This document shows, piece by piece, positions 2,941-37,264 of a stretch of 37,551 bases of DNA. Location: the IMG/VR virus record IMGVR_UViG_2778261670_000003; one strand, given 5' to 3'. The stretch comes from a virus. Its lineage: Duplodnaviria > Heunggongvirae > Uroviricota > Caudoviricetes. The notes under the pieces were generated by a model. It did not search any database, was not told the DNA's origin, and saw nothing but the letters and a program-made list of their open reading frames with translations. The position numbers and the translations under genes were made by a program. Position 1 is the first letter of the stretch. Each line of letters starts with the position of its first letter.

Positions 2941-3822
2941 TTAATTCGAAATGATTGTGCTTCTTATGCATGCAACTACCTCGATATCAGAAAATGCACA
3001 TTCAAAGTAAGTTTCTTTACTTCTGATATTTATCATACCTTTAGGTAGCCTAGTAATTTGTCTGACGGAATAGGTTCCATCAATATTAATTAACCAGTAT
3101 CCATCTAATACATCAGAAAATTTCTGATCACAGATGTATGTCACTAAACCATCCTGAACGACAATTGGTGCTGAAAGATTAGCGGGTAAAAATGACGAAT
3201 CGAAAATATATGAGCCACTCTCAACCATTTTGCCTGCATTGAGATGAAATTTAGGCAGTTCTTTTACCGATGTTGTGAGAGCATTGTGCTCGCTGCCTTG
3301 TCCAGTGGCTAGCCATAAAAGAGAATTTCCTGTTTCCAACGAACATTTTATGATCCAATCAGCCGGGAATGTGTCTCGCAAATATCTATTTGCCATAGTG
3401 CTTTTAGATACATTCAGATGGTCGGCAAGTTCTTGTCTTGTTTTAAAGCCATACGCTTTCATTAGCCTGTCTATTGCATCACGTCCGCCTGAGTCCAAAT
3501 TCAGATCGTTCCCAATTGGGGACTTCAGTGTGGTGGCTTGGGAAACGTGCTGAACCTTTGATGCAGTTGCCTTTGACATGACCGGAGCCTCAGTACTCTG
3601 AGGGAATGGTACGCCTTTTCCGAATGAGAGCCACTCGATAGATGCACCCGTTTCAATTGCACACTGAATTACCCAGTCAGCAGGAAATACGTCACGCATC
3701 CAGCGCGTGCCCATAGTGCTTGCAGATACGTTGAACTGTTCGCACAGAGCTTGCCTTGTCTTGAATCCATACGCTTCAAGCATGCGCGTTATGACTGCTT
3801 GTCCTCCGTTTTTGAAATTCAT
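2941..3822 (-). CDS. Immunity repressor, CI-like, with a tandemly duplicated N-terminal DNA-binding domain
   Basis: Two homologous about 65-aa repeats (…YGFKTRQ…STM…R…FPADW…ETG…WL…G). Position between int and cox/apl, divergent from the lytic operon. No obvious S24 Ser/Lys cleavage motif. Confidence 0.8.
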   Translation of the reverse strand: MNFKNGGQAVITRMLEAYGFKTRQALCEQFNVSASTMGTRWMRDVFPADWVIQCAIETGASIEWLSFGKGVPFPQSTEAPVMSKATASKVQHVSQATTLKSPIGNDLNLDSGGRDAIDRLMKAYGFKTRQELADHLNVSKSTMANRYLRDTFPADWIIKCSLETGNSLLWLATGQGSEHNALTTSVKELPKFHLNAGKMVESGSYIFDSSFLPANLSAPIVVQDGLVTYICDQKFSDVLDGYWLINIDGTYSVRQITRLPKGMINIRSKETYFECAFSDIEVVACIRSTIISN

Positions 3823-5752: not shown

Positions 5753-6606
5753 GCACCATCCTGAAATGGGCGGGAAATAAAACCGCCATAATGTCCGAAC
5801 TGAAAAAGCATCTTCCTGCTGGCCCGCGACTGGTTGAACCTTTCGCGGGATCCTGTGCAGTGATGATGGAGACGGATTACCCTAGCTATCTTGTTGCGGA
5901 TATTAATCCTGATTTAATCAACCTCTATAAAAAGGTTGCTGCTGATTGTGAGGCGTTTATATCTCGTGCCAGAGCTTTATTTGAGGAAGCAAACAGGGAG
6001 GTGGCTTATTACAACATAAGGCAGGAGTTTAATTACTCCACTGAAATTACTGATTTCATGAAAGCGGTATATTTTCTGTATCTCAATCGTCATGGTTACC
6101 GTGGGTTATGTCGCTATAACAAGAGCGGGTATTTCAACATTCCCTACGGTAATTATAAAAATCCGTATTTCCCTGAAAAAGAAATTCGCGCATTTGCAGA
6201 GAAAGCCCAGCGAGCAACGTTTATCTGCGCCAGCTTTGATGAAACGCTGGCGATGCTGCAGGTGGGGGATGTGGTGTATTGCGATCCGCCTTATGACGGT
6301 ACGTTTTCCGGTTATCACACTGACGGCTTCACTGAAGATGACCAGTATCACCTGGCATCTGTTCTTGAATATCGATCATCAGAAGGTCATCCAGTCATTG
6401 TTTCTAACAGTGACACATCCCTGATCCGTTCGCTGTATCGAAATTTCACTCACCACTACATCAAGGCAAAACGCAGCATCGGCGTGTCGGCTGGCGAGAG
6501 TAAATCTGCAACAGAAATCATTGCTGTTTCCGGAGCGCGCTGCTGGGTGGGATTTGATCCTTCGTGTGGCGTGGATAGTTCTGCTGTGTACGAGGTGCGC
6601 GTATGA
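5749..6606 (+). CDS. dam: DNA adenine methyltransferase (Dam family, N6-adenine)
   Basis: N-terminal LKWAGNK, FAGS motif and catalytic DPPY motif. ATG at 5749 overlaps the previous stop (ATGA). The ORF track start at 5635 is an out-of-context N-terminal extension. Confidence 0.9.
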
Positions 6607-9017
6607 GTCATGACGATATGAGCAACTCTAGCGGCTTTAACGAGGCCGCTGCAGCATTTTCATGGAACGGCCCGAAAAAGGCCATTAACCCTTATCTGGA
6701 CCCGGCGGAAGTTGCGCCGGAGTCTGCACTTTCAAACCTGATCACTCTGTACGCTGCCGATAATGAGCAGGAACAGCTGCGCCGCGATGCACTGAGTGAG
6801 CAGGTCTGGGAGCGTTATTTCTTTAATGAATCCCGTGATCCTGTCCAGCGCGAAATGGAGCAGGATAAGCTCATTAGCCGGGCAAAGCTGGCGCATGAGC
6901 AGCAGCGTTTTAATCCAGACATGGTCATTCTGGCTGACGTCAACGCCCAACCTTCCCATATCAGCAAGCCGCTGATGCAACGTATTGAATACTTCAGCAG
7001 CCTGGGCAGGCCAAAGGCTTATTCTCGCTATTTGCGTGAGACGATTAAGCCATGTCTGGAACGACTGGAGCATGTACGCGACAGTCAGCTATCCACTTCT
7101 TTTCGCTTTATGGCAAGCCATGAAGGGCTGGACGGCCTGCTGATCCTGCCTGAAATGAGTCAGGATCAGGTGAAACGCCTGTCTACCCTTGTCGCTGCGC
7201 ATATGAGCATGTGTCTTGATGCCGCTTGTGGTGATTTGTACGCCACCGATGATGTTAAGCCAGAAGAAATCCGCAAGACATGGGAAAAGGTGGCAGCGGA
7301 AACCCTACGTTTGGATGTCATCCCGCCTGCGTTTGAGCAACTCCGTCGGAAAAGAAACCGCCGTAAACCAGTGCCCTATGAACTCATTCCGGGCTCGCTG
7401 GCGCGTATGCTGTGCGCCGACTGGTGGTATCGGAAATTGTGGAAGATGCGTTGCGAATGGCGGGAAGAGCAGTTGCGTGCTGTCTGCCTGGTCAGCAAAA
7501 AAGCATCTCCCTATGTCAGCTATGAAGCTGTGATGCATAAACGTGAGCAGCGCCGTAAGTCGCTGGAGTTTTTCCGTTCTCATGAACTGGTGAACGAAGA
7601 CGGAGACGCGCTGGATATGGAAGATGTGGTAAACGCCAGCTGCAGCAACCCGGCGCATCGCCGCAATGAGATGATGGCCTGTGTTAAAGGTCTGGAGCTT
7701 ATCGCGGAAATGCGCGGTGACTGCGCCGTTTTCTACACCATTACCTGTCCGTCACGTTTCCATTCCACGCTCAATAACGGCAGACCCAACCCGACCTGGA
7801 AAAACGCGACGGTAAGACAAAGCAGCGATTATCTGGTCGGTATGTTTGCTGCATTTCGTAAGGCGATGCACAAAGCCGGGTTGCGCTGGTATGGCGTGCG
7901 GGTGGCTGAGCCGCATCACGACGGCACAGTTCACTGGCACCTGTTGTGTTTCATGCGCAAAAAAGACCGCCGCGCCATTACTGCATTGTTGCGTAAGTTT
8001 GCTATCCGTGAAGACCGCGAGGAGCTGGGCAATAACACTGGGCCGCGCTTTAAGTCTGAGTTGATTAACCCGCGCAAAGGTACGCCAACAAGCTACATCG
8101 CGAAATACATCAGTAAGAACATTGACGGGCGTGGTCTGGCTGGCGAGATCAGCAAGGAAACGGGGAAATCCCTGCGTGATAATGCTGAATACGTTAATGC
8201 CTGGGCGTCTCTGCATCGTGTTCAGCAATTCCGCTTCTTTGGCATTCCGGGGCGTCAGGCTTACCGTGAACTGCGATTGCTGGCTGGTCAGGCGGCAAGG
8301 CAACAGGGGGACAAAAAAGCAGGTGCGCCGGTACTGGATAACCCGCGCCTTGATGCAATCCTGGCTGCTGCTGATGCTGGTTGTTTTGCCACCTACATCA
8401 TGAAGCAGGGCGGCGTACTGGTTCCCCGCAAATATCACCTGATCAGAACCGCTTATGAAATCAACGAAGAGCCGACCGCCTATGGCGATCACGGCATTCG
8501 TATTTATGGCATCTGGTCACCCATTGCAGAGGGCAAGATCTGCACTCATGCAGTGAAGTGGAAAATGGTTCGTAAGGCCGTTGACGTTCAGGAGGCGGCA
8601 GCCGACCAGGGCGCTTGCGCCTCTTGGACTCGTGGCAATAACTGTCCCCTTGCTGAAAATTTAAACCAACAAGGGAAAGACAAATCAGCTGATGGGGACT
8701 CCAGAACGGATATTACCCGTATGAATGACAAGGAGTTGCACGATTACCTGCACAGTATGAGCAAAAAAGAGCGCCGGGAACTGGCTGCAAGGTTACGCCA
8801 GGTGAAACCGAAACGGCGTAAAGACTACAAACAGCGAATTACAGACCATCAGCGACAGCAGCTCGTCTATGAACTGAAGTCTAGGGGATTTGATGGCAGC
8901 GAGAAAGAAGTCGATTTGCTCCTTCGCGGCGGCAGTATTCCGTCAGGAGCAGGCCTGCGTATCTTCTATCGGAACCAGCGTCTGAAGGAAGATGATAAGT
9001 GGCGGAACCTGTATTAA
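6603..9017 (+). CDS. Replication initiation endonuclease (P2 gpA-like rolling-circle initiator)
   Basis: 804-aa product with HUH-type VHWHLL motif. Position downstream of early genes as in P2/186. Confidence 0.9.
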
Positions 9018-9109
9018 TTACGCGGGTTAACAATTCGTGCTCTTAATAATACCAGGCATATCAGGCCGATGAACGTAAAAAAACGTTTTACATCAGTAAG
9101 ATTATTATA

Positions 9110-9129
9110 TACTGTAAATATAAACAGTG
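9110..9129. promoter_or_regulatory. LexA (SOS) box TACTGTAAATATAAACAGTG
   Basis: CTGT-N8-ACAG with an AT-rich spacer, about 40 nt upstream of the 9170 ORF. A second degenerate half-site follows at about 9127-9146. Confidence 0.6.
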
Positions 9130-9169
9130 GTTATGTATACAGTATTGTTTTGGTGTCATAGGAGGAAAG

Positions 9170-9358
9170 ATGCAGGACTATTTTTTGGAGTCTTTGAAGC
9201 TCCAGCGCATTGATTTTTTTCTTAAGCTTGTAGCGGCTAGTGAGTGTAGTGATGAAGAGAAGGGGCTGGCTCTGCAGTGGGTTTCTGAATTGACTGATGA
9301 ACTCATGGCAAAAATCAGAAGCCACGAATACAACCGCTCAATGGATGTCATCAGCTGA
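9170..9358 (+). CDS. Small hypothetical protein, first ORF of SOS-controlled module (Tum-like N-terminal part?)
   Basis: Strong GGAGG SD at 9161-9165, ATG at 9170; 62 aa. Confidence 0.5.
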   Translation: MQDYFLESLKLQRIDFFLKLVAASECSDEEKGLALQWVSELTDELMAKIRSHEYNRSMDVIS

Positions 9359-9368
9359 GGTGACTTTT

Positions 9369-9602
9369 ATGCGCATTGAAATAATGATCGATAAAGAGCA
9401 GAAGATTAGCCAGTCTACCCTGGACGCCCTTGAATCCGAGCTTTACCGCAATCTGCGCCCCCTGTATCCCAAAACGGTAATTCGCATTCGCAAAGGTAGC
9501 TCTAACGGTGTGGAACTAACCGGACTGCAACTGGATGAAGAAAGAAAACAAGTGATGAAAATTATGCAGAAGGTGTGGGAGGACGACAGCTGGCTGCATT
9601 AA
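9369..9602 (+). CDS. dinI: DinI-family protein (186 Tum-like C-terminal antirepressor domain)
   Basis: 77-aa product MRIEIMIDKEQ…, similar in length and pattern to E. coli DinI (MRIEVTIAK…). GAGGTG SD upstream. LexA box upstream. Confidence 0.8.
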   Translation: MRIEIMIDKEQKISQSTLDALESELYRNLRPLYPKTVIRIRKGSSNGVELTGLQLDEERKQVMKIMQKVWEDDSWLH

Positions 9603-9610
9603 GAAACGTT

Positions 9611-9640
9611 GCCCCCAGGAGGATTCATTCTGATGGGGGC
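9611..9640 (+). terminator. GC-rich hairpin (GCCCCCA-16nt-TGGGGGC) after dinI-like gene
   Basis: Seen directly; weak T-tract (tagttt) follows. Confidence 0.3.
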
Positions 9641-9800
9641 TAGTTTGGGCAATGAGTGAAATAAGGCGTAAGGTGGGCGGTTATTTTGATAAGTGATCGT
9701 CCGCTTTGTGTCAGAAGCAGAAGCAGAAGTGGGAGTGTCTGAGACTCTCTAAAAGTTGATGATTCACTTACAAAACCATTTTCCTGATGGATGCTTACAC

Positions 9801-10136
9801 TTACGAATGATTATTCTGTTTAGTCTTCATGAGAAAATCCCGAATCTTTGCCAAGTTTGAGTTTTCGGGGATTGAATCCATGTACGGATCACGCTCAAAC
9901 ACTAATTGCTCAGATTCAACGAAAGCCTGCCACTCTACTGGGTCTAGCTCAAATCCCATTGCTGTCATATCACTTTCATCTTCCCCCTCGATCCAGTGGA
10001 CTAAATAAAACAATTCATCATCAGGAGAATCATCCTCACCATCGACAATATCAACATCGGTTACAGTGATACGTAGGGTGGGATCGATTTTTGAGACATA
10101 AATTCCTAACTGTGGTATAGGGGGAATATTGTTCAT
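9801..10136 (-). CDS. Small highly acidic protein (111 aa), unknown function
   Basis: AGGAG SD 5 nt upstream of ATG at 10136. Very D/E-rich (DGEDDSPDDE, EGEDESD). Divergent from the retron. Confidence 0.7.
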   Translation of the reverse strand: MNNIPPIPQLGIYVSKIDPTLRITVTDVDIVDGEDDSPDDELFYLVHWIEGEDESDMTAMGFELDPVEWQAFVESEQLVFERDPYMDSIPENSNLAKIRDFLMKTKQNNHS

Positions 10137-10588
10137 GGAAACTCCTTTTATTGGTGCTTGCTATTTGAATAAAAATACGCCAAACAGAGTGTTAACTGTG
10201 AATATGGAAAGAATCGTTGTAAGTACCCCGCTTAGGTGTCCCATTCTATTTTAGAGGTTCTCGTGCATATGGATTATGTTATCTGAAAGTTAACTTCCGC
10301 TTCCCGTTCACAGCGAACATTCATCTTTGTAAACCCGTATGATCCGTTTTTCAAGTGGCCATTCAGATACGGATTTTCACTTCCTTGACAGTGCATGACT
10401 ATGCTGCATGAAATCGCATGATCGATTGAGGATCGTCTTTGCTCAGATCCGCCAGAACTGGCGGGCTTTTGCTCATGTCATGCATGTGCATGAAAACCAC
10501 TGCATAAAGCGGGCAGGCGTGGCGGGGATACGAGCGCGCGCTGAGCTGCATTCACTTGAATAATCCGTATGTTAGTGCTAGCCTAGCT

Positions 10589-10743
10589 GTGCCCTTAGCA
10601 GGAAAGTACATTCAATATGTTACTTTCTAGTGGTTGGTGTTTAGCCAACTCGTATGGATTGCTTGGTATCTCGACACAAGTTAGCCTTGTGTCATTTATA
10701 GACACCAGGCTAACTTGTGTCTCGGGAACTCTTGTATGGGCAT
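10589..10743 (+). ncRNA. Candidate retron msr-msd non-coding RNA (boundaries approximate)
   Basis: Ec86-like GTGCCCTTA-G motif at 10589-10598 (candidate a1 plus branching G). Imperfect complement TATGGGCAT at 10735-10743 (candidate a2). Two msr-like stem-loops at 10602-10627 and 10632-10647. A perfect 14-bp inverted repeat with nested hairpin at 10673-10721 is msd-like. Lies directly upstream of the effector and RT on the same strand. Confidence 0.4.
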
Positions 10744-11669
10744 TAATTGTTATGTGGTTTAAACATCCTAGATATTTACGAGCAAAAGAAAATTTTATTT
10801 CAAGTTTTTTTCCAAGTAACTTGAATTCTTTTAATTATATCCTGCCAAAAGTATTATTTATTTGTGGAGGAGATGAGACTTATTGTTCAAATAGAGGGAT
10901 GCTGGAAAAATATATTGCTAAGCATCATAAAGAATTTGTTACTTTTCGAGCAGAATTAGCATGGGACGTAATTAGCAATTTAGGAACTCATAGTAATGTG
11001 AATGCGTTATCACTTGAAGAATGGCTTGCGGATTTTTCTGATGTGGTAATTATTCTCGTAGAGAGTTATGGCACTGTAGCTGAATTGGGCGCATTTTCAT
11101 TAAGTCCTGTTTTACGTAAAAAACTTCTTCCTATATTAGATAAAAAGTTTGAAAGTCATAAGTCATTTATCAATACAGGGCCCGTAAAATGGGTTGATAG
11201 TGAATCCAAATTTGGCCCTACAATCTATACTGAATTTGAGACAATTTTAACGTGTATGCCTAAAATAAATGAAAGGCTAAATAGGAAAGTTCAATCAAAC
11301 ATAACTAATACAAATTCAATAGGTGATTACAAATATTCACCAAAAATTTTTTTATTTTTTGTGCTCGTTGTTATATCTTCTTTAGGTCCAATAACAATTC
11401 CTGAGATTATTAATATCACAGGTAGGTTGATAAATTATAAAATTAATAAAAATATTTCATTTGTTGTTTCTATTGGAGTTGCTCTTGGGATTTTTAAGGA
11501 AAGTCGATTTGAGGGCGTGACCCATTATTCATGTGTCGATTATATTAAATTTTTTAATCATGAAAAGATGAAAGATTTAGTTGAAAGTATTCAACGAAGT
11601 AGAGCTAGATCATTATCCGATTTAATAATGATATCTAAATTCAAAGCAGAATTAGAAAGGATCATGTGA
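10617..11669 (+). CDS. Retron effector, nucleoside 2-deoxyribosyltransferase-like (NDT-like) with C-terminal hydrophobic segments
   Basis: ESYGTVAELGA resembles the NDT catalytic-glutamate motif, after a beta-strand-like KVLFICGG. Two C-terminal hydrophobic stretches. AT-rich. The 10617 ATG has an AGGAAA SD but lies inside a predicted RNA hairpin; the true start may be ATG 10752, just after the candidate a2. Confidence 0.7.
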   Translation: MLLSSGWCLANSYGLLGISTQVSLVSFIDTRLTCVSGTLVWALIVMWFKHPRYLRAKENFISSFFPSNLNSFNYILPKVLFICGGDETYCSNRGMLEKYIAKHHKEFVTFRAELAWDVISNLGTHSNVNALSLEEWLADFSDVVIILVESYGTVAELGAFSLSPVLRKKLLPILDKKFESHKSFINTGPVKWVDSESKFGPTIYTEFETILTCMPKINERLNRKVQSNITNTNSIGDYKYSPKIFLFFVLVVISSLGPITIPEIINITGRLINYKINKNISFVVSIGVALGIFKESRFEGVTHYSCVDYIKFFNHEKMKDLVESIQRSRARSLSDLIMISKFKAELERIM

Positions 11670-11670
11670 T

Positions 11671-12600
11671 ATGTTAATTGAGTATCTAGCTAAAGTTTTA
11701 CTGTTAGAAGCTGATTTTATATTAAAAGTTGCAAATGATGCTAACTCGCATTATGGTAAATTTTCTGTACCTAAAAAAGGCGGTGGGACAAGAATCGTCT
11801 ATCAGCCCTCTAAAGAATTAAAAGTTTTGCAGAGATTACTTCATGATAATGTTCTGTCGAAATTGCCGATTCATCCAAATGCTGTAGCATATCAGCAGGG
11901 TTCATCAGTGTTCAAACATGCAAGCATTCACAAAGCTAAACGTTTTATGCTTAAGATGGACTTTGAAGGTTTTTTTGATTCAATTAAGGAAAGTGATGTT
12001 GAGAGATTTATAAACGACAACAAGCATTTCTTCAGTGATGATTGGTCAAAGGATGATACTGATTTGCTGGTAAAAATAGTATGCTTTAACGGGAGACTGA
12101 CTATGGGTGCTGTTAGTTCCCCTGTGGTAAGCAATGCTATATGCTATGAATTAGATCATATATTGAATGAATTTTGTCTTTCAAAAGGTGTAACATATAC
12201 ACGCTATGCTGATGATATGTACTTCTCAACAAACGAAGAAAATGTATTGAAGCAAATACCACCTTTTTTACGCTCGAATTTAAAAACTTTAAAATACCCA
12301 TCAAAACTATGGATTAATAGAAAAAAGACACTGCATATGTCAAAGAAAAATAAAATGATGGTTACGGGTGTGACTTTGACAACAGATGGTGGAGTATCCT
12401 TAGGGAGAGATAAAAAAAGGATGGTTAAATCGCTTATTTTTAAATGGGAGGCTCTTGATGAGAAGAAAAGGCTATTTCTTCAAGGATATTTATCGTATTG
12501 CAAAAGTGTTGAGCCATTATTTATTAATAGGCTTTGTGCGAAATATTCATCAGAGCTGATTGATGAAATCCAGAGATATCAACCTGAAGTATCAGAATAA
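11671..12600 (+). CDS. Retron-type reverse transcriptase
   Basis: Motifs VYQPSKELKVLQ, LKMDFEGFFDSI, YTRYADDMYFS (YADD catalytic) and MVTGVTLT (retron VTG motif) align with Ec86 RT as I recall it. 309 aa, the typical retron RT size. Confidence 0.9.
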   Translation: MLIEYLAKVLLLEADFILKVANDANSHYGKFSVPKKGGGTRIVYQPSKELKVLQRLLHDNVLSKLPIHPNAVAYQQGSSVFKHASIHKAKRFMLKMDFEGFFDSIKESDVERFINDNKHFFSDDWSKDDTDLLVKIVCFNGRLTMGAVSSPVVSNAICYELDHILNEFCLSKGVTYTRYADDMYFSTNEENVLKQIPPFLRSNLKTLKYPSKLWINRKKTLHMSKKNKMMVTGVTLTTDGGVSLGRDKKRMVKSLIFKWEALDEKKRLFLQGYLSYCKSVEPLFINRLCAKYSSELIDEIQRYQPEVSE

Positions 12601-12606
12601 CGTGTG

Positions 12607-12637
12607 TGCGCATGAAAATTTCCATGCGCATTTTCTT
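12607..12637 (+). terminator. Rho-independent terminator (TGCGCATG-8nt-CATGCGCA then TTTTCTT) after the RT gene
   Basis: Perfect 8-bp stem followed by a T-run; sits between convergent RT and portal genes. Confidence 0.6.
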
Positions 12638-13661
12638 AAAAACAGTAGTCATTAAATGAAATAATTTCTTTTCCAGCCCAGTTATTCAGTGATTCAAAAT
12701 TCTTTTGCAATGGCATTAACTCATTCCGCACAAACACTTTGCTTGCCTTCTCCACATCCCCAAATCCCCCAACATTATTAGGCATAATCCCCATCATCTG
12801 CGGCGGCACGCGGTGTGCCGCCATCATGTCATCGCGACTAACATTTTTGATATTCAAAAACTCATCCTTCGCCGCGACTTCTGACAATGGGATGATCTGA
12901 AGCCCGTCTTTTTTGCCGTTAGGCGAGTACATAAACAGGTTGCGGAAGTTGCCTGGCCCTTTGGCGCTTTTCATCGCGTTGCGGAGGTTGTTCACATCCT
13001 CCTGGTTCTGAGCGGCATCGGTCATGTACATTATGAATCCTGCATGGCTGCCATTAATATAATATTTGCGTCGGAACAGCGTGGCGGACTCGTTGAGCAG
13101 GGCTGACGGAATGGCAGAAAGATAACCGGGCAGGCCGTAGATCTCCTGGTTGATATCGGGTTCCATCAGATGAAAGATGCTGCCTTTCGTGAACTGATAC
13201 GGCTGGGTTGTCATACTGTATTGCACAAACCAGTAGGTATCCAGGTCTAACCCGCGTCGGGTGTATTTTGCCAGTGCAGGCTCAAGGGCGATAACTTCAC
13301 CGAAGCGGTTCGTGCGTTTCTCCAGGTAGGCGTTACCAAAAACCAGATAGTCCTGCACAAAACGCGAAAAAGCCTGCTGGCTGAGCAGCGGGTGAGGGAT
13401 GTAGGTGCTGGTCAGAATGTTGCACTTCACTGCAATCGGTGAGCTGTGATGCACGGCGGCGCGGAAGGTTCGCGCCAGTCCGTCGAAACTCACAGGCGGC
13501 TCATACCAACGATCCATCTGTACGCATTCCACATAGTCCAGCAGTTCGCGGCGGTCCAGAACAGGAACGGGATCACCGAAGCTGAATGCTTCGGCTGAAG
13601 TTTGGTTTTTATGCTGGATCTGATTCGTCGCCGCAGCGCGTTTTTTCTTACTCTTTCCCAT
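12636..13661 (-). CDS. Portal protein (P2 gpQ-like)
   Basis: 341-aa product, size and position match P2 Q. ATG at 13661; the ORF track begins one codon earlier at a TTG. Confidence 0.9.
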   Translation of the reverse strand: MGKSKKKRAAATNQIQHKNQTSAEAFSFGDPVPVLDRRELLDYVECVQMDRWYEPPVSFDGLARTFRAAVHHSSPIAVKCNILTSTYIPHPLLSQQAFSRFVQDYLVFGNAYLEKRTNRFGEVIALEPALAKYTRRGLDLDTYWFVQYSMTTQPYQFTKGSIFHLMEPDINQEIYGLPGYLSAIPSALLNESATLFRRKYYINGSHAGFIMYMTDAAQNQEDVNNLRNAMKSAKGPGNFRNLFMYSPNGKKDGLQIIPLSEVAAKDEFLNIKNVSRDDMMAAHRVPPQMMGIMPNNVGGFGDVEKASKVFVRNELMPLQKNFESLNNWAGKEIISFNDYCF

Positions 13662-34931: not shown

Positions 34932-36617
34932 TTATCCTAATCCTGGCCATACCATGACGATGATTGTCCCTGCCAGCGTCAGCAGGACGTTGGCGATTGC
35001 GTAGGTGCCCGCATAGCCCAGCGCAGGGATGTTACTGCGAGCTGTATCACTGATGATCTCCATTGCCGGCGCGCAGGTGCGTGCGCCCATCATTGCGCCG
35101 AACAACAGTGCGCGGTTCATTCGCAATACATAAGCACCGAACAAGAAACAGATAACCACGGGCACAAGACTGACAATTAATCCGGCAATCAACATCTGAC
35201 CGCCAATCGCGCCCAGGCCGTTATTAATACCGCTACCGGCGCTCAGACCAACGCCTGCCATAAACACCATCAAGCCGAACTCTTTCACCATGCTTAATGC
35301 ACCTTGCGGAATGTAACCGAAGGTCGGGTGGTTAGCACGCATAAAGCCCAGCATAATTCCGGCGAATAACAACCCGGCAGCGTTCCCCATGCCGAAACTG
35401 AATGTGCTGAACTGGAAGGTGATCATCCCGATCATCAGCCCAATAACAAAGAAGGCGCAAAATGCCAGCAGGTCAGTGACCTGGCTGTGAATCGAGATAA
35501 AGCCGATGCGATCGGCGATGGTTTTTACGCGACGGGCATCACCGCTGACTTGTAAAACGTCACCTTTGTTAAGCACGACGTTGTCATCTATCGGCATCTC
35601 AATCTGGCTACGAATGACGCGGTTAAGGAAGCAACCGTGATCGGTCAACTTCAGTTGTGCGAGACGTTTACCTACAGCGTTATGGTTTTTAACGACCACT
35701 TCTTCAGTGACGATACGCATGTCGAGAAGGTCACGATCGAAAACTTCTTTACCGTTACGGAAGCTGGGATCGAGTCGGGCATGGGCGTCGGGATAGCCTA
35801 CCAACGCTATTTCATCGCCCATTTGTAGCACGGCATCACCGTCTGGATTTGCCAGAATCCCGTTACGTCGAATACGTTCAATGTAGCAGCCGGTTTGTCG
35901 ATAAATACCCAGTTCACGCAGATTTTTGCCGTCGGTCCAGGCCACCAGCTCCGGGCCGACGCGATAGGCGCGGATCACCGGTAAATAAACCTTACGGTTG
36001 GCATCAGTGTCCAGGCCACGTTCGCGGGCGATTTGCTGGGCGCTGGTCTGTAAGTCCTGATGCTGCAATTTCGGCAAGTAACGCGCACCAACAATCAAAC
36101 TCACCAGACCGATTAAATAGGTTAAGGCATACCCGAGGCTCAGATTATCCAGTGCCAGTGAGAGCTGCCTGCTTTCCATGCCGGAATGACGCAGTGTATC
36201 GCCAGCACCGACCAGAACCGGTGTCGACGTCATAGAGCCTGCTAACATACCGGCCGTCAGGCCAATATCCCAGCCAAACAGCTTACCTAACCCTAAGGCG
36301 ATCACCAGCGCACTGCCAACCATCACCAGTGCTAACATTAGGTAATTTTTCCCATCGCGAAAAAAAATGGAAAAAAAGTTCGGTCCGGCTTCGACCCCGA
36401 CGCAGAAAATAAACAGCATAAAGCCAAGATTAAGCGCATCGGTGTTAATGCTGAAATGTTGTTGGCCTAATAACAGCGATACGACTAAAACGCCAATGGA
36501 ATTACCCAGTTGGATCGAACCAAGTCGTAACTTTCCGAGACATAGCCCAAGCGCGAGGACCACAAATAATAACAGAATGTAATTCCCATTTAACAATTCG
36601 GCGACGTTTATATTCAC
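34932..36617 (-). CDS. ybjL: Putative transport protein YbjL (host chromosomal gene)
   Basis: 561-aa polytopic membrane protein with central soluble domains. Recognised as E. coli YbjL by size and by synteny with ybjM and grxA. Confidence 0.85.
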
Positions 36618-36886
36618 GGAGGCTAACTTCTTGTTTACTAGTAAGCTGTTGAAAGAAATGGTAATTTACGATAATGTTTTTTACCAGAATTCAGGGCGCA
36701 GATTCATTCAGCGCACCTAAACGATAGTAAAGTAACAATATATTTTACTAGTGTAATCACATTAGGTATCAACGGCTATATGAATTGCGTTGGCCTATAT
36801 TAGCATGGAATGCGAAGCGGCTTTATCTTACTGAACGCCACACTGGCGAAAAATGTGTTCGATAGACGCAGTGTCAGGAGGAACGA

Positions 36887-37264
36887 GTGAAACATAAACA
36901 ACGTTGGGCGGGGGCAATCTGCTGTTTTGTCCTCTTCATTGTGGTGTGCCTTTTTCTGGCGACGCACATGAAAGGCGCTTTTCGGGCTGCCGGGCATCCT
37001 GAAATCGGCTTGCTATTTTTCATTCTTCCTGGAGCAGTCGCCAGCTTCTTTTCACAGCGTAGAGAAGTCCTGAAACCTCTGTTTGGCGCAATGCTGGCGG
37101 CACCCTGTTCGATGCTCATTATGCGGCTGTTTTTTTCACCGACGCGCTCATTCTGGCAAGAGCTGGCATGGTTACTAAGCGCGGTGTTCTGGTGTGCGCT
37201 GGGGGCACTGTGTTTCTTATTTATCAGTAGTTTGTTTAAACCACAGCACAGAAAAAATCAGTAA
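36887..37264 (+). CDS. ybjM: Inner membrane protein YbjM (host)
   Basis: 125-aa hydrophobic protein, AGGAGG SD, GTG start. Confidence 0.8.
   Translation: MKHKQRWAGAICCFVLFIVVCLFLATHMKGAFRAAGHPEIGLLFFILPGAVASFFSQRREVLKPLFGAMLAAPCSMLIMRLFFSPTRSFWQELAWLLSAVFWCALGALCFLFISSLFKPQHRKNQ

Follow-up and report, generated by a model that had tools for sequence, protein, structure and literature searches.

The region directly downstream of replication gene A in the DNA analysed here (the window, a stretch of 37,551 nucleotides taken at its full length) can be identified with high confidence as the SOS induction operon of a Fels-2-like prophage of the P2/186 family, in the form that has tumA and tumB as separate genes. 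The window represents such a Fels-2-type prophage, and the operon consists of a LexA box that overlaps a putative promoter, followed by two genes on the plus strand: tumA (ORF1, 9170-9358, 62 aa), a homologue of the N-terminal half of phage 186 Tum, and tumB (ORF2, 9369-9602, 77 aa, with its ATG at 9369 and its stop codon ending at 9602), a member of the DinI family. The box, the promoter geometry, the open reading frames, their homologies, their arrangement as separate cistrons and the purifying selection upon them can be read directly in the sequence. Experimental evidence, which applies to the window by analogy, comes from the E. coli HS prophage DuoHS, where TumA and TumB are identical to those described here and induction was shown to need both tumA and a cleavable LexA. 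Thus, the proposal of an earlier note on this DNA, that an SOS-controlled, LexA-repressed induction module of the Tum type lies here, is borne out.

The biology of this module is not new. It is already known, namely, as 186 tum, as PSP3 tumA/tumB, and from Fels-2 and DuoHS, and it is very common: the same module, with identical proteins, has been published and genetically tested, and about one fifth of complete E. coli genomes carry it. What our analysis changes is the annotation, as the 62-aa 'hypothetical protein' is most likely the Tum antirepressor and the DinI-like gene its accessory partner.

Prophage setting and the putative LexA-controlled promoter

The window carries genes for an integrase, a CI of the 186 type, and Cox/Apl-like and CII-like products, as well as replication gene A (6603-9017), after which come the tum module and the late genes, and the placement of the tum module directly 3' of gene A is shared by 186, Fels-2, PSP3 and DuoHS. 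The host genes ybjL and ybjM lie at the right end of the prophage (34932-37264), and therefore the DNA is almost certainly of E. coli chromosomal origin; the ybjL-side locus is also the integration locus of DuoHS in E. coli HS and of the defective P2-like prophage of BL21. Between 9000 and 9600 the sequence is 96-98% identical to Fels-2, to many Klebsiella P2-like phages and to E. coli phages, and of 5426 complete E. coli genomes, 1125 (~21%) contain a stretch similar to the tum module. The likeness to relatives stops at about 9600-9612, directly after tumB, which is where variable cargo starts.

The canonical LexA box pointed out by the earlier note, TACTGTAAATATAAACAGTG at 9110-9129 (no strand assigned), matches the consensus TACTGTATATATATACAGTA at 17 of 20 positions. 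This 20-mer is the sole site in the 37.5 kb with at most three mismatches from the consensus, and none of 100 shuffles yielded any site of that quality. The bare CTGT-N8-ACAG motif, in contrast with the full 20-mer, is common enough by chance, with one occurrence in the window against 0.56 expected. We compared ten sequences, namely, the window, DuoHS, Fels-2, SopEphi, Klebsiella phage ST512-KPC3phi13.6, PSP3, 186, ESSI-2, ev015 and vB_YenM, which span six Peduoviridae genera. In all ten a LexA box with 16-19 of 20 matches lies upstream of a TumA-like ORF although the flanks have diverged, a conservation that, judging from these relatives, is beyond chance expectation. The box of the window is the same as those of DuoHS and Fels-2, and LexA presumably binds it.

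A p95-like SOS promoter can be assigned to 9087-9115 (plus strand) by homology to phage 186. Read by analogy with that phage, the sequence offers a putative -35 hexamer, TTTACA (9087-9092), a spacer of 17 nt, and a putative -10 hexamer, TACTGT (9110-9115), which lies within the LexA box. In the annotated record of 186, the p95 promoter has TTCACA as its -35, an 18-nt spacer and the same TACTGT as its -10, a hexamer with which the LexA site begins. TTTTACA is invariant in five sequences of the Fels-2 group, and TACTGT is invariant in the relatives. A generic sigma-70 scan of 8900-10300 reported no promoter, because the -10 hexamer TACTGT agrees with the consensus at only three of six positions. 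LexA sitting on the -10 hexamer would then be the mechanism of repression, as the 186 arrangement suggests.

Directly 3' of the LexA box lies a second conserved element, GGTTATGTATACAGTA (9130-9144, plus strand), in which the right-hand portion, ATACAGTA, matches a LexA half-site perfectly. The pattern GGTTAT-N3/4-TACAGT is invariant across the Fels-2 group, whereas the remainder of the 5' UTR diverges. The 20-mer at 9125-9144, which overlaps the LexA box by 5 nt, scores 15 of 20 to the LexA consensus by hand count and has a poor left half. This element could be a second, weak LexA contact or an element of the 5' UTR.

The two genes of the module and their boundary

The 62-aa ORF with a strong Shine-Dalgarno sequence that had been noticed earlier is tumA, which is preceded by AGGAGG (9160-9165, plus strand) at 4 nt from its ATG at 9170, a signal kept in the relatives. 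Its product is difficult to place by standard means: it has no Pfam match at E≤0.01, no BLASTP alignment to 186 Tum, no sequence relative in the PDB and no PADLOC model. Profile searches are more telling. TumA matches the PHROG profiles phrog_698 (5.9e-38), phrog_8554 (1e-8) and phrog_1993 (0.002), and residues 1-70 of 186 Tum match the same three at equivalent positions (6.7e-6, 3.3e-12 and 2e-23, respectively). In agreement with this, a Smith-Waterman alignment pairs residues 7-41 of TumA with residues 7-41 of the 186 Tum N-terminal part at z=8.8, and none of 2000 shuffles was as good. We conclude from these comparisons that TumA is homologous to the non-DinI, N-terminal half of 186 Tum. The AF2 model of TumA is an all-helical, two-helix hairpin (pLDDT 88.7), for which Foldseek returned generic helical hairpins only, all at E>1. 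A literature search for the names TumA and TumB retrieved unrelated papers only.

The second ORF, described earlier as a 77-aa DinI-like frame in a different register, is confirmed as such; it lies in the +1 frame relative to tumA and begins 10 nt after the tumA stop codon. TumB matches Pfam DinI (PF06183) over the whole profile (positions 1-63 of 63) with E=6.6e-23 and 81.3 bits, the cutoff being 24.2. It shares 41% identity with residues 71-145 of 186 Tum, covers positions 71-148 of phrog_189, and matches the E. coli DinI structures 1GHH and 7YWA at 2.7e-6. Alignment with 186 Tum, proposed at the outset as a check, thus divides that protein between the two window genes. The earlier description of both ORFs as a DinI-family unit has to be narrowed, as only ORF2 belongs to that family, ORF1 being the Pfam-negative helical hairpin described above. 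TumB and E. coli DinI (1GHH, 7YWA) align at full length and share a C-terminal acidic W-E-D-D-W motif, but TumB is phage-borne and shares a transcript with an antirepressor. Its family membership, together with the 186 record, where a product with the DinI part only is annotated as modulating SOS induction, leads us to think that TumB, like DinI, most likely tunes RecA filaments and does not act on CI.

The p95-tum region of 186 resembles the window in having a LexA box that includes a -10 TACTGT, in its place after gene A and in a hairpin after the gene; moreover, the N-terminal antirepressor and C-terminal DinI parts are homologous, the DinI part is separately translated, and the CI is of the non-self-cleaving 186 type. 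It differs in encoding one 146-aa fused protein with nested internal starts, followed in the operon by orf97, whereas the window has two genes in different frames and unrelated cargo in the place of orf97. The stop codon at 9356-9358 and the frame offset part tumA from tumB, and so no single fused Tum of the 186 subtype is present; the module is of the split tumA/tumB subtype, as in PSP3 and Fels-2. According to Lemire et al. (2011, PMC3121763), in a statement that cites Bunny et al. (2002), the tum genes of Fels-2 and PSP3 are split in two by a stop codon.

The earlier note had left it unclear whether the two ORFs are separate or joined by a frameshift, and comparison of the junctions answers this in favour of separate cistrons, because the frame offset varies among the relatives and each tumB has its own Shine-Dalgarno sequence and ATG. 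First, the offset from tumA to tumB is +1 with a 10-nt gap in the window, HS and Fels-2. Second, SopEphi and Klebsiella phage ST512-KPC3phi13.6 have an offset of +2 and a gap of 11 nt. Third, the offset is 0 in PSP3, where an in-frame stop codon and a 3-nt gap separate the genes, and in 186 both parts are fused. In the window, the Shine-Dalgarno sequence of tumB, GAGGTG (9357-9362, plus strand), lies 6 nt before the ATG and overlaps the tumA stop codon.

The alternative that both frames form one gene, expressed by a programmed +1 ribosomal frameshift near 9297-9358 as an active, 186-like antirepressor of about 140 aa, would agree with 186 Tum being a single 146-aa fusion of both parts and with the DinI frame being open from 9297, which leaves an overlap of about 60 nt between the two frames. 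We regard it as exceedingly improbable. With offsets of +1, +2 and 0, no single frameshift mechanism could be conserved, and neither the frame relation nor a slippery signal is conserved, whereas a ribosome-binding site and ATG of its own are found on every tumB compared; at the point in question, ATC AGC TGA G, no prfB-like +1 signal was seen. Furthermore, 186 also makes its DinI part separately, from an internal GTG. Phages with TumA only also exist: ESSI-2, ev015 and the Yersinia vB_YenM phages have the LexA box and a TumA-like ORF but no DinI ORF. Finally, a phmmer search with TumA against 1.8 billion representative proteins gave 67 clusters, the gene calls in which are nearly all of 50-100 aa, and none of these 67 clusters contains a fusion to DinI or links TumA to the fused form in 186. 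We also considered the sole terminator-like match of the scan, a hairpin at 9347-9364 by which the tumB Shine-Dalgarno sequence would be hidden; its z of -1.16 is not significant, and it is absent from the SopEphi and ST512-KPC3phi13.6 junctions, so that we rejected it as a conserved regulatory element.

Separate cistrons might also have arisen by decay, that is, the split could mark a formerly fused tum that was pseudogenised by a stop codon or frameshift, in a prophage that is no longer SOS-inducible. The reading frame is indeed interrupted relative to 186, and some carriers are defective prophages, for instance that of BL21. We give this scenario almost no credence, since purifying selection on both genes is strong, dN/dS being 0.06-0.12 for tumA and 0.04-0.07 for tumB (0.04-0.12 over both halves, at dS of about 1). 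The split form is, in addition, kept in Fels-2, SopEphi, Klebsiella phages and PSP3 and in the 1125 E. coli genomes mentioned above, and DuoHS, with the same proteins, is fully inducible in a tum-dependent manner. We therefore retain the reading of two intact, separately translated genes.

In PSP3 and ST512-KPC3phi13.6 the TumB proteins are nearly alike, although the TumA proteins differ widely, and in some phages TumA occurs by itself. On these comparisons, the tumA/tumB junction resembles a recombination joint, with tumA and tumB as two modules that can be exchanged independently.

The probable antirepressor and its presumed CI target

The correspondence between the window and DuoHS is close enough for published genetics to be mapped onto it. 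The TumA and TumB of the window have the same amino acid sequences (100% identity) as WP_001154431 and WP_001217575, respectively, of E. coli HS, and the DNA from 9018 to 9600, LexA box included, is identical at 567 of 585 positions (97%). DuoHS thus shares with the window both proteins, the LexA box, the place after gene A and the ybjL-side chromosomal locus, but its CI is of another immunity type (189 versus 293 aa, 49% identical). Fels-2 (STM2728/STM2726.1) is similarly close, with 60 of 62 residues of TumA and 77 of 77 of TumB conserved, the same LexA box, and again a place after gene A.

The Phollow paper (PMC12055606) describes a Δtum strain of DuoHS made with primers NHR24/NHR28, which join the ATG to TGAGGTGACTTTTATGCGCATTG. 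The two halves of NHR28 match the window at 9158-9172 and 9356-9378 with no mismatches. Since the primer halves join the ATG and the TGA of the 62-aa ORF, the published 'tum' of DuoHS is exactly this ORF, and the Δtum mutation removes only tumA, leaving the Shine-Dalgarno sequence, ATG and coding sequence of tumB intact. In DuoHS, mitomycin C elicits neither lysis nor virion formation (virion foci) in a Δtum or a lexA(Ind-) background (PMC12055606). Induction that proceeds independently of the module, an outcome that would have spoken against the original proposal, is thus not what was seen in this prophage, and neither of the two tests, run on a module that encodes identical proteins, spoke against the model.

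Which of the two products is the antirepressor can be addressed on this basis. In phage 186, Tum binds CI and prevents its binding to operators (Shearwin et al., 1998, as reported in PMC3121763). The earlier note had assigned this function to a DinI-like protein; the homology of TumA with 186 Tum and the genetic results in HS instead make ORF1, TumA, the most likely antirepressor, and not the DinI-like ORF. The annotation of PSP3 and the existence of relatives with TumA alone favour the same assignment. The PSP3 record describes tumA as 'similar to 5' end 186 tum; UV induction of prophage' and tumB as 'similar to dinI and 3' end of 186 tum', and a personal communication quoted second-hand by Lemire et al. 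(2011, PMC3121763) places the antirepressor activity of PSP3 in the upstream gene.

The opposite assignment, with the DinI-like ORF2 as the real antirepressor and ORF1 as an accessory or leader peptide, draws on the fact that 186 Tum, the best-known member of the family, includes a DinI-like part and has inhibition of CI binding to DNA as its annotated function, and on the possibility that the HS Δtum mutation is polar or loses translational coupling to tumB. This remains a quite unlikely reading, because the HS deletion spares ORF2 and yet abolishes induction, and because the 186 record gives CI inhibition to the full-length product only and modulation of SOS to the product with the DinI part only. 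It is also at odds with the PSP3 'UV induction' annotation of tumA and with the placement of the activity upstream in that phage as relayed by Lemire et al. (2011, PMC3121763), with the several relatives in which a LexA box and TumA are retained and a DinI ORF is lacking, and with the near identity of TumB in PSP3 and ST512-KPC3phi13.6 despite their greatly differing TumA. In principle, the HS Δtum mutation may lower tumB expression through lost coupling, and in this respect the two genes are not formally separated. PSP3 offers a close parallel in layout: it has two cistrons, a small non-DinI gene followed by a DinI homologue, which lie between an upstream LexA box (19/20) and a downstream hairpin. 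Its TumA shows only a marginal likeness to that of the window (z=2.4, equalled in 59 of 2000 shuffles), and its genes share a frame, in contrast with the +1 offset found here.

A comparable logic is known from the Gifsy and Fels-1 operons, in which a small LexA-repressed antirepressor (GfoA, GftA, FsoA) binds a non-cleavable repressor (Lemire et al., 2011, PMC3121763). These operons share with the window the LexA-antirepressor logic and a dinI homologue within the operon, but their antirepressors and repressors belong to unrelated families and the dinI homologue comes first.

The presumed target of TumA is the 186-type CI repressor (2941-3822, minus strand, 293 aa), which has two Pfam Phage_CI_repr domains and one Phage_CI_C domain. 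Consistent with the earlier remark that the repressor has no obvious self-cleavage motif, no Peptidase_S24 match to this protein was found in Pfam at E≤0.1, and therefore antirepression, rather than RecA-mediated cleavage, is the expected route of induction. The CI of the window is 31% identical to 186 CI, and both of its N-terminal copies align to the single helix-turn-helix (HTH) domain of the latter. These tandem HTH domains, at residues ~10-79 and ~115-177, precede the C-terminal domain of CI; in the shorter repressors of 186 (192 aa) and E. coli HS (189 aa), there is a single HTH domain. Long CI forms (290-330 aa) are common throughout Enterobacterales and among Klebsiella P2-like phages, all annotated just as 'phage repressor protein CI', and we found no characterisation of the tandem-HTH architecture. 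The action of TumA on this CI is an extrapolation from HS, because the window CI is of another immunity type, with 49% identity and an extra HTH domain; we infer the contact between the two proteins.

TumA proteins of at least 98% identity accompany at least four different types of 186-type CI, exemplified by those of HS (189 aa), vB_EcoM-813R9 (~197 aa), Klebsiella (287 aa) and the window (293 aa). This association suggests that TumA may not be specific for one immunity type, and it is tempting to speculate that it is a broad-spectrum antirepressor, an idea that we put forward tentatively and consider rather doubtful. If it were true, and if TumA sees a conserved surface of CI, one SOS pulse, or the TumA of a single prophage, could induce P2-like prophages across immunity types. 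The tandem-HTH CI and the conserved half-box beside the LexA site would then be further putative layers of the switch.

Taken together with the known systems, the operon can be envisaged to work as follows. In the lysogen, host LexA would occupy 9110-9129 and cover the -10 of the p95-type promoter (TTTACA-17-TACTGT), keeping it shut. After DNA damage, activated RecA would stimulate the self-cleavage of LexA, the promoter would be turned on, and one bicistronic mRNA would be made. TumA, the predicted helical hairpin, would then bind the 186-type CI and block its binding to operators, such that the early lytic promoter would be derepressed and the prophage induced. TumB, translated from its own Shine-Dalgarno sequence and ATG, would bind RecA filaments and tune the strength or duration of the SOS signal.

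The hairpin after tumB and the cargo of the prophage

Directly 3' of tumB, a stem-loop of the form GCCCCCA...TGGGGGC (9611-9640, plus strand) marks the border to the variable cargo. It has a minimum free energy of -20.4 kcal/mol (z=-2.3), and hairpins with differing stem sequences lie at the equivalent place in SopEphi, ST512-KPC3phi13.6, PSP3 and 186, that of 186 being the annotated partial terminator t95a. The hairpin of the window is probably a partial terminator or an RNA-end structure, although its T-run is weak.

The cargo that follows tumB is a retron in the window and consists of other genes in HS and Fels-2. Just after the hairpin there is an ORF of 111 aa on the minus strand (9801-10136) that matches phrog_17127, of unknown function, at 7e-70. 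The same protein (WP_001059831) is found in BL21 and in strain 2014C-3307 ahead of different defence cargo, and therefore it travels with the slot and not with the cargo. In the slot itself, a type II-A retron (10617-12600, plus strand) comprises the gene for an NDT-like effector (PADLOC NDT_II-A, 8.6e-54), directly followed by that for a reverse transcriptase (RT_II-A, 5.3e-105; Pfam RVT_1). The retron ncRNA probably lies around 10260-10600, with the msr-msd perhaps bounded by inverted repeats at 10360-10375 and 10562-10577; when 8900-12800 was scanned against Rfam, there was no credible match, and no retron ncRNA model matched. In the equivalent slot, BL21 has a retron of the St85 family, behind an identical tum module, and strain 2014C-3307 has ParA and SIR2.

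As the induction switch of the prophage, the module predicts SOS inducibility through TumA, and herein lies its practical relevance, since the defence cargo, that is, the retron and a PDC-M18 pair, would be mobilised when the prophage is induced. This second item, a candidate defence pair, lies between integrase and CI on the minus strand (1135-2860) and consists of two genes that match PDC-M18A (400 aa, 2.1e-36) and PDC-M18B (176 aa, 5.1e-24). The interval between integrase and CI is a second cargo hotspot of the prophage; E. coli HS has a 63-aa ORF only at the position of the PDC-M18 pair.
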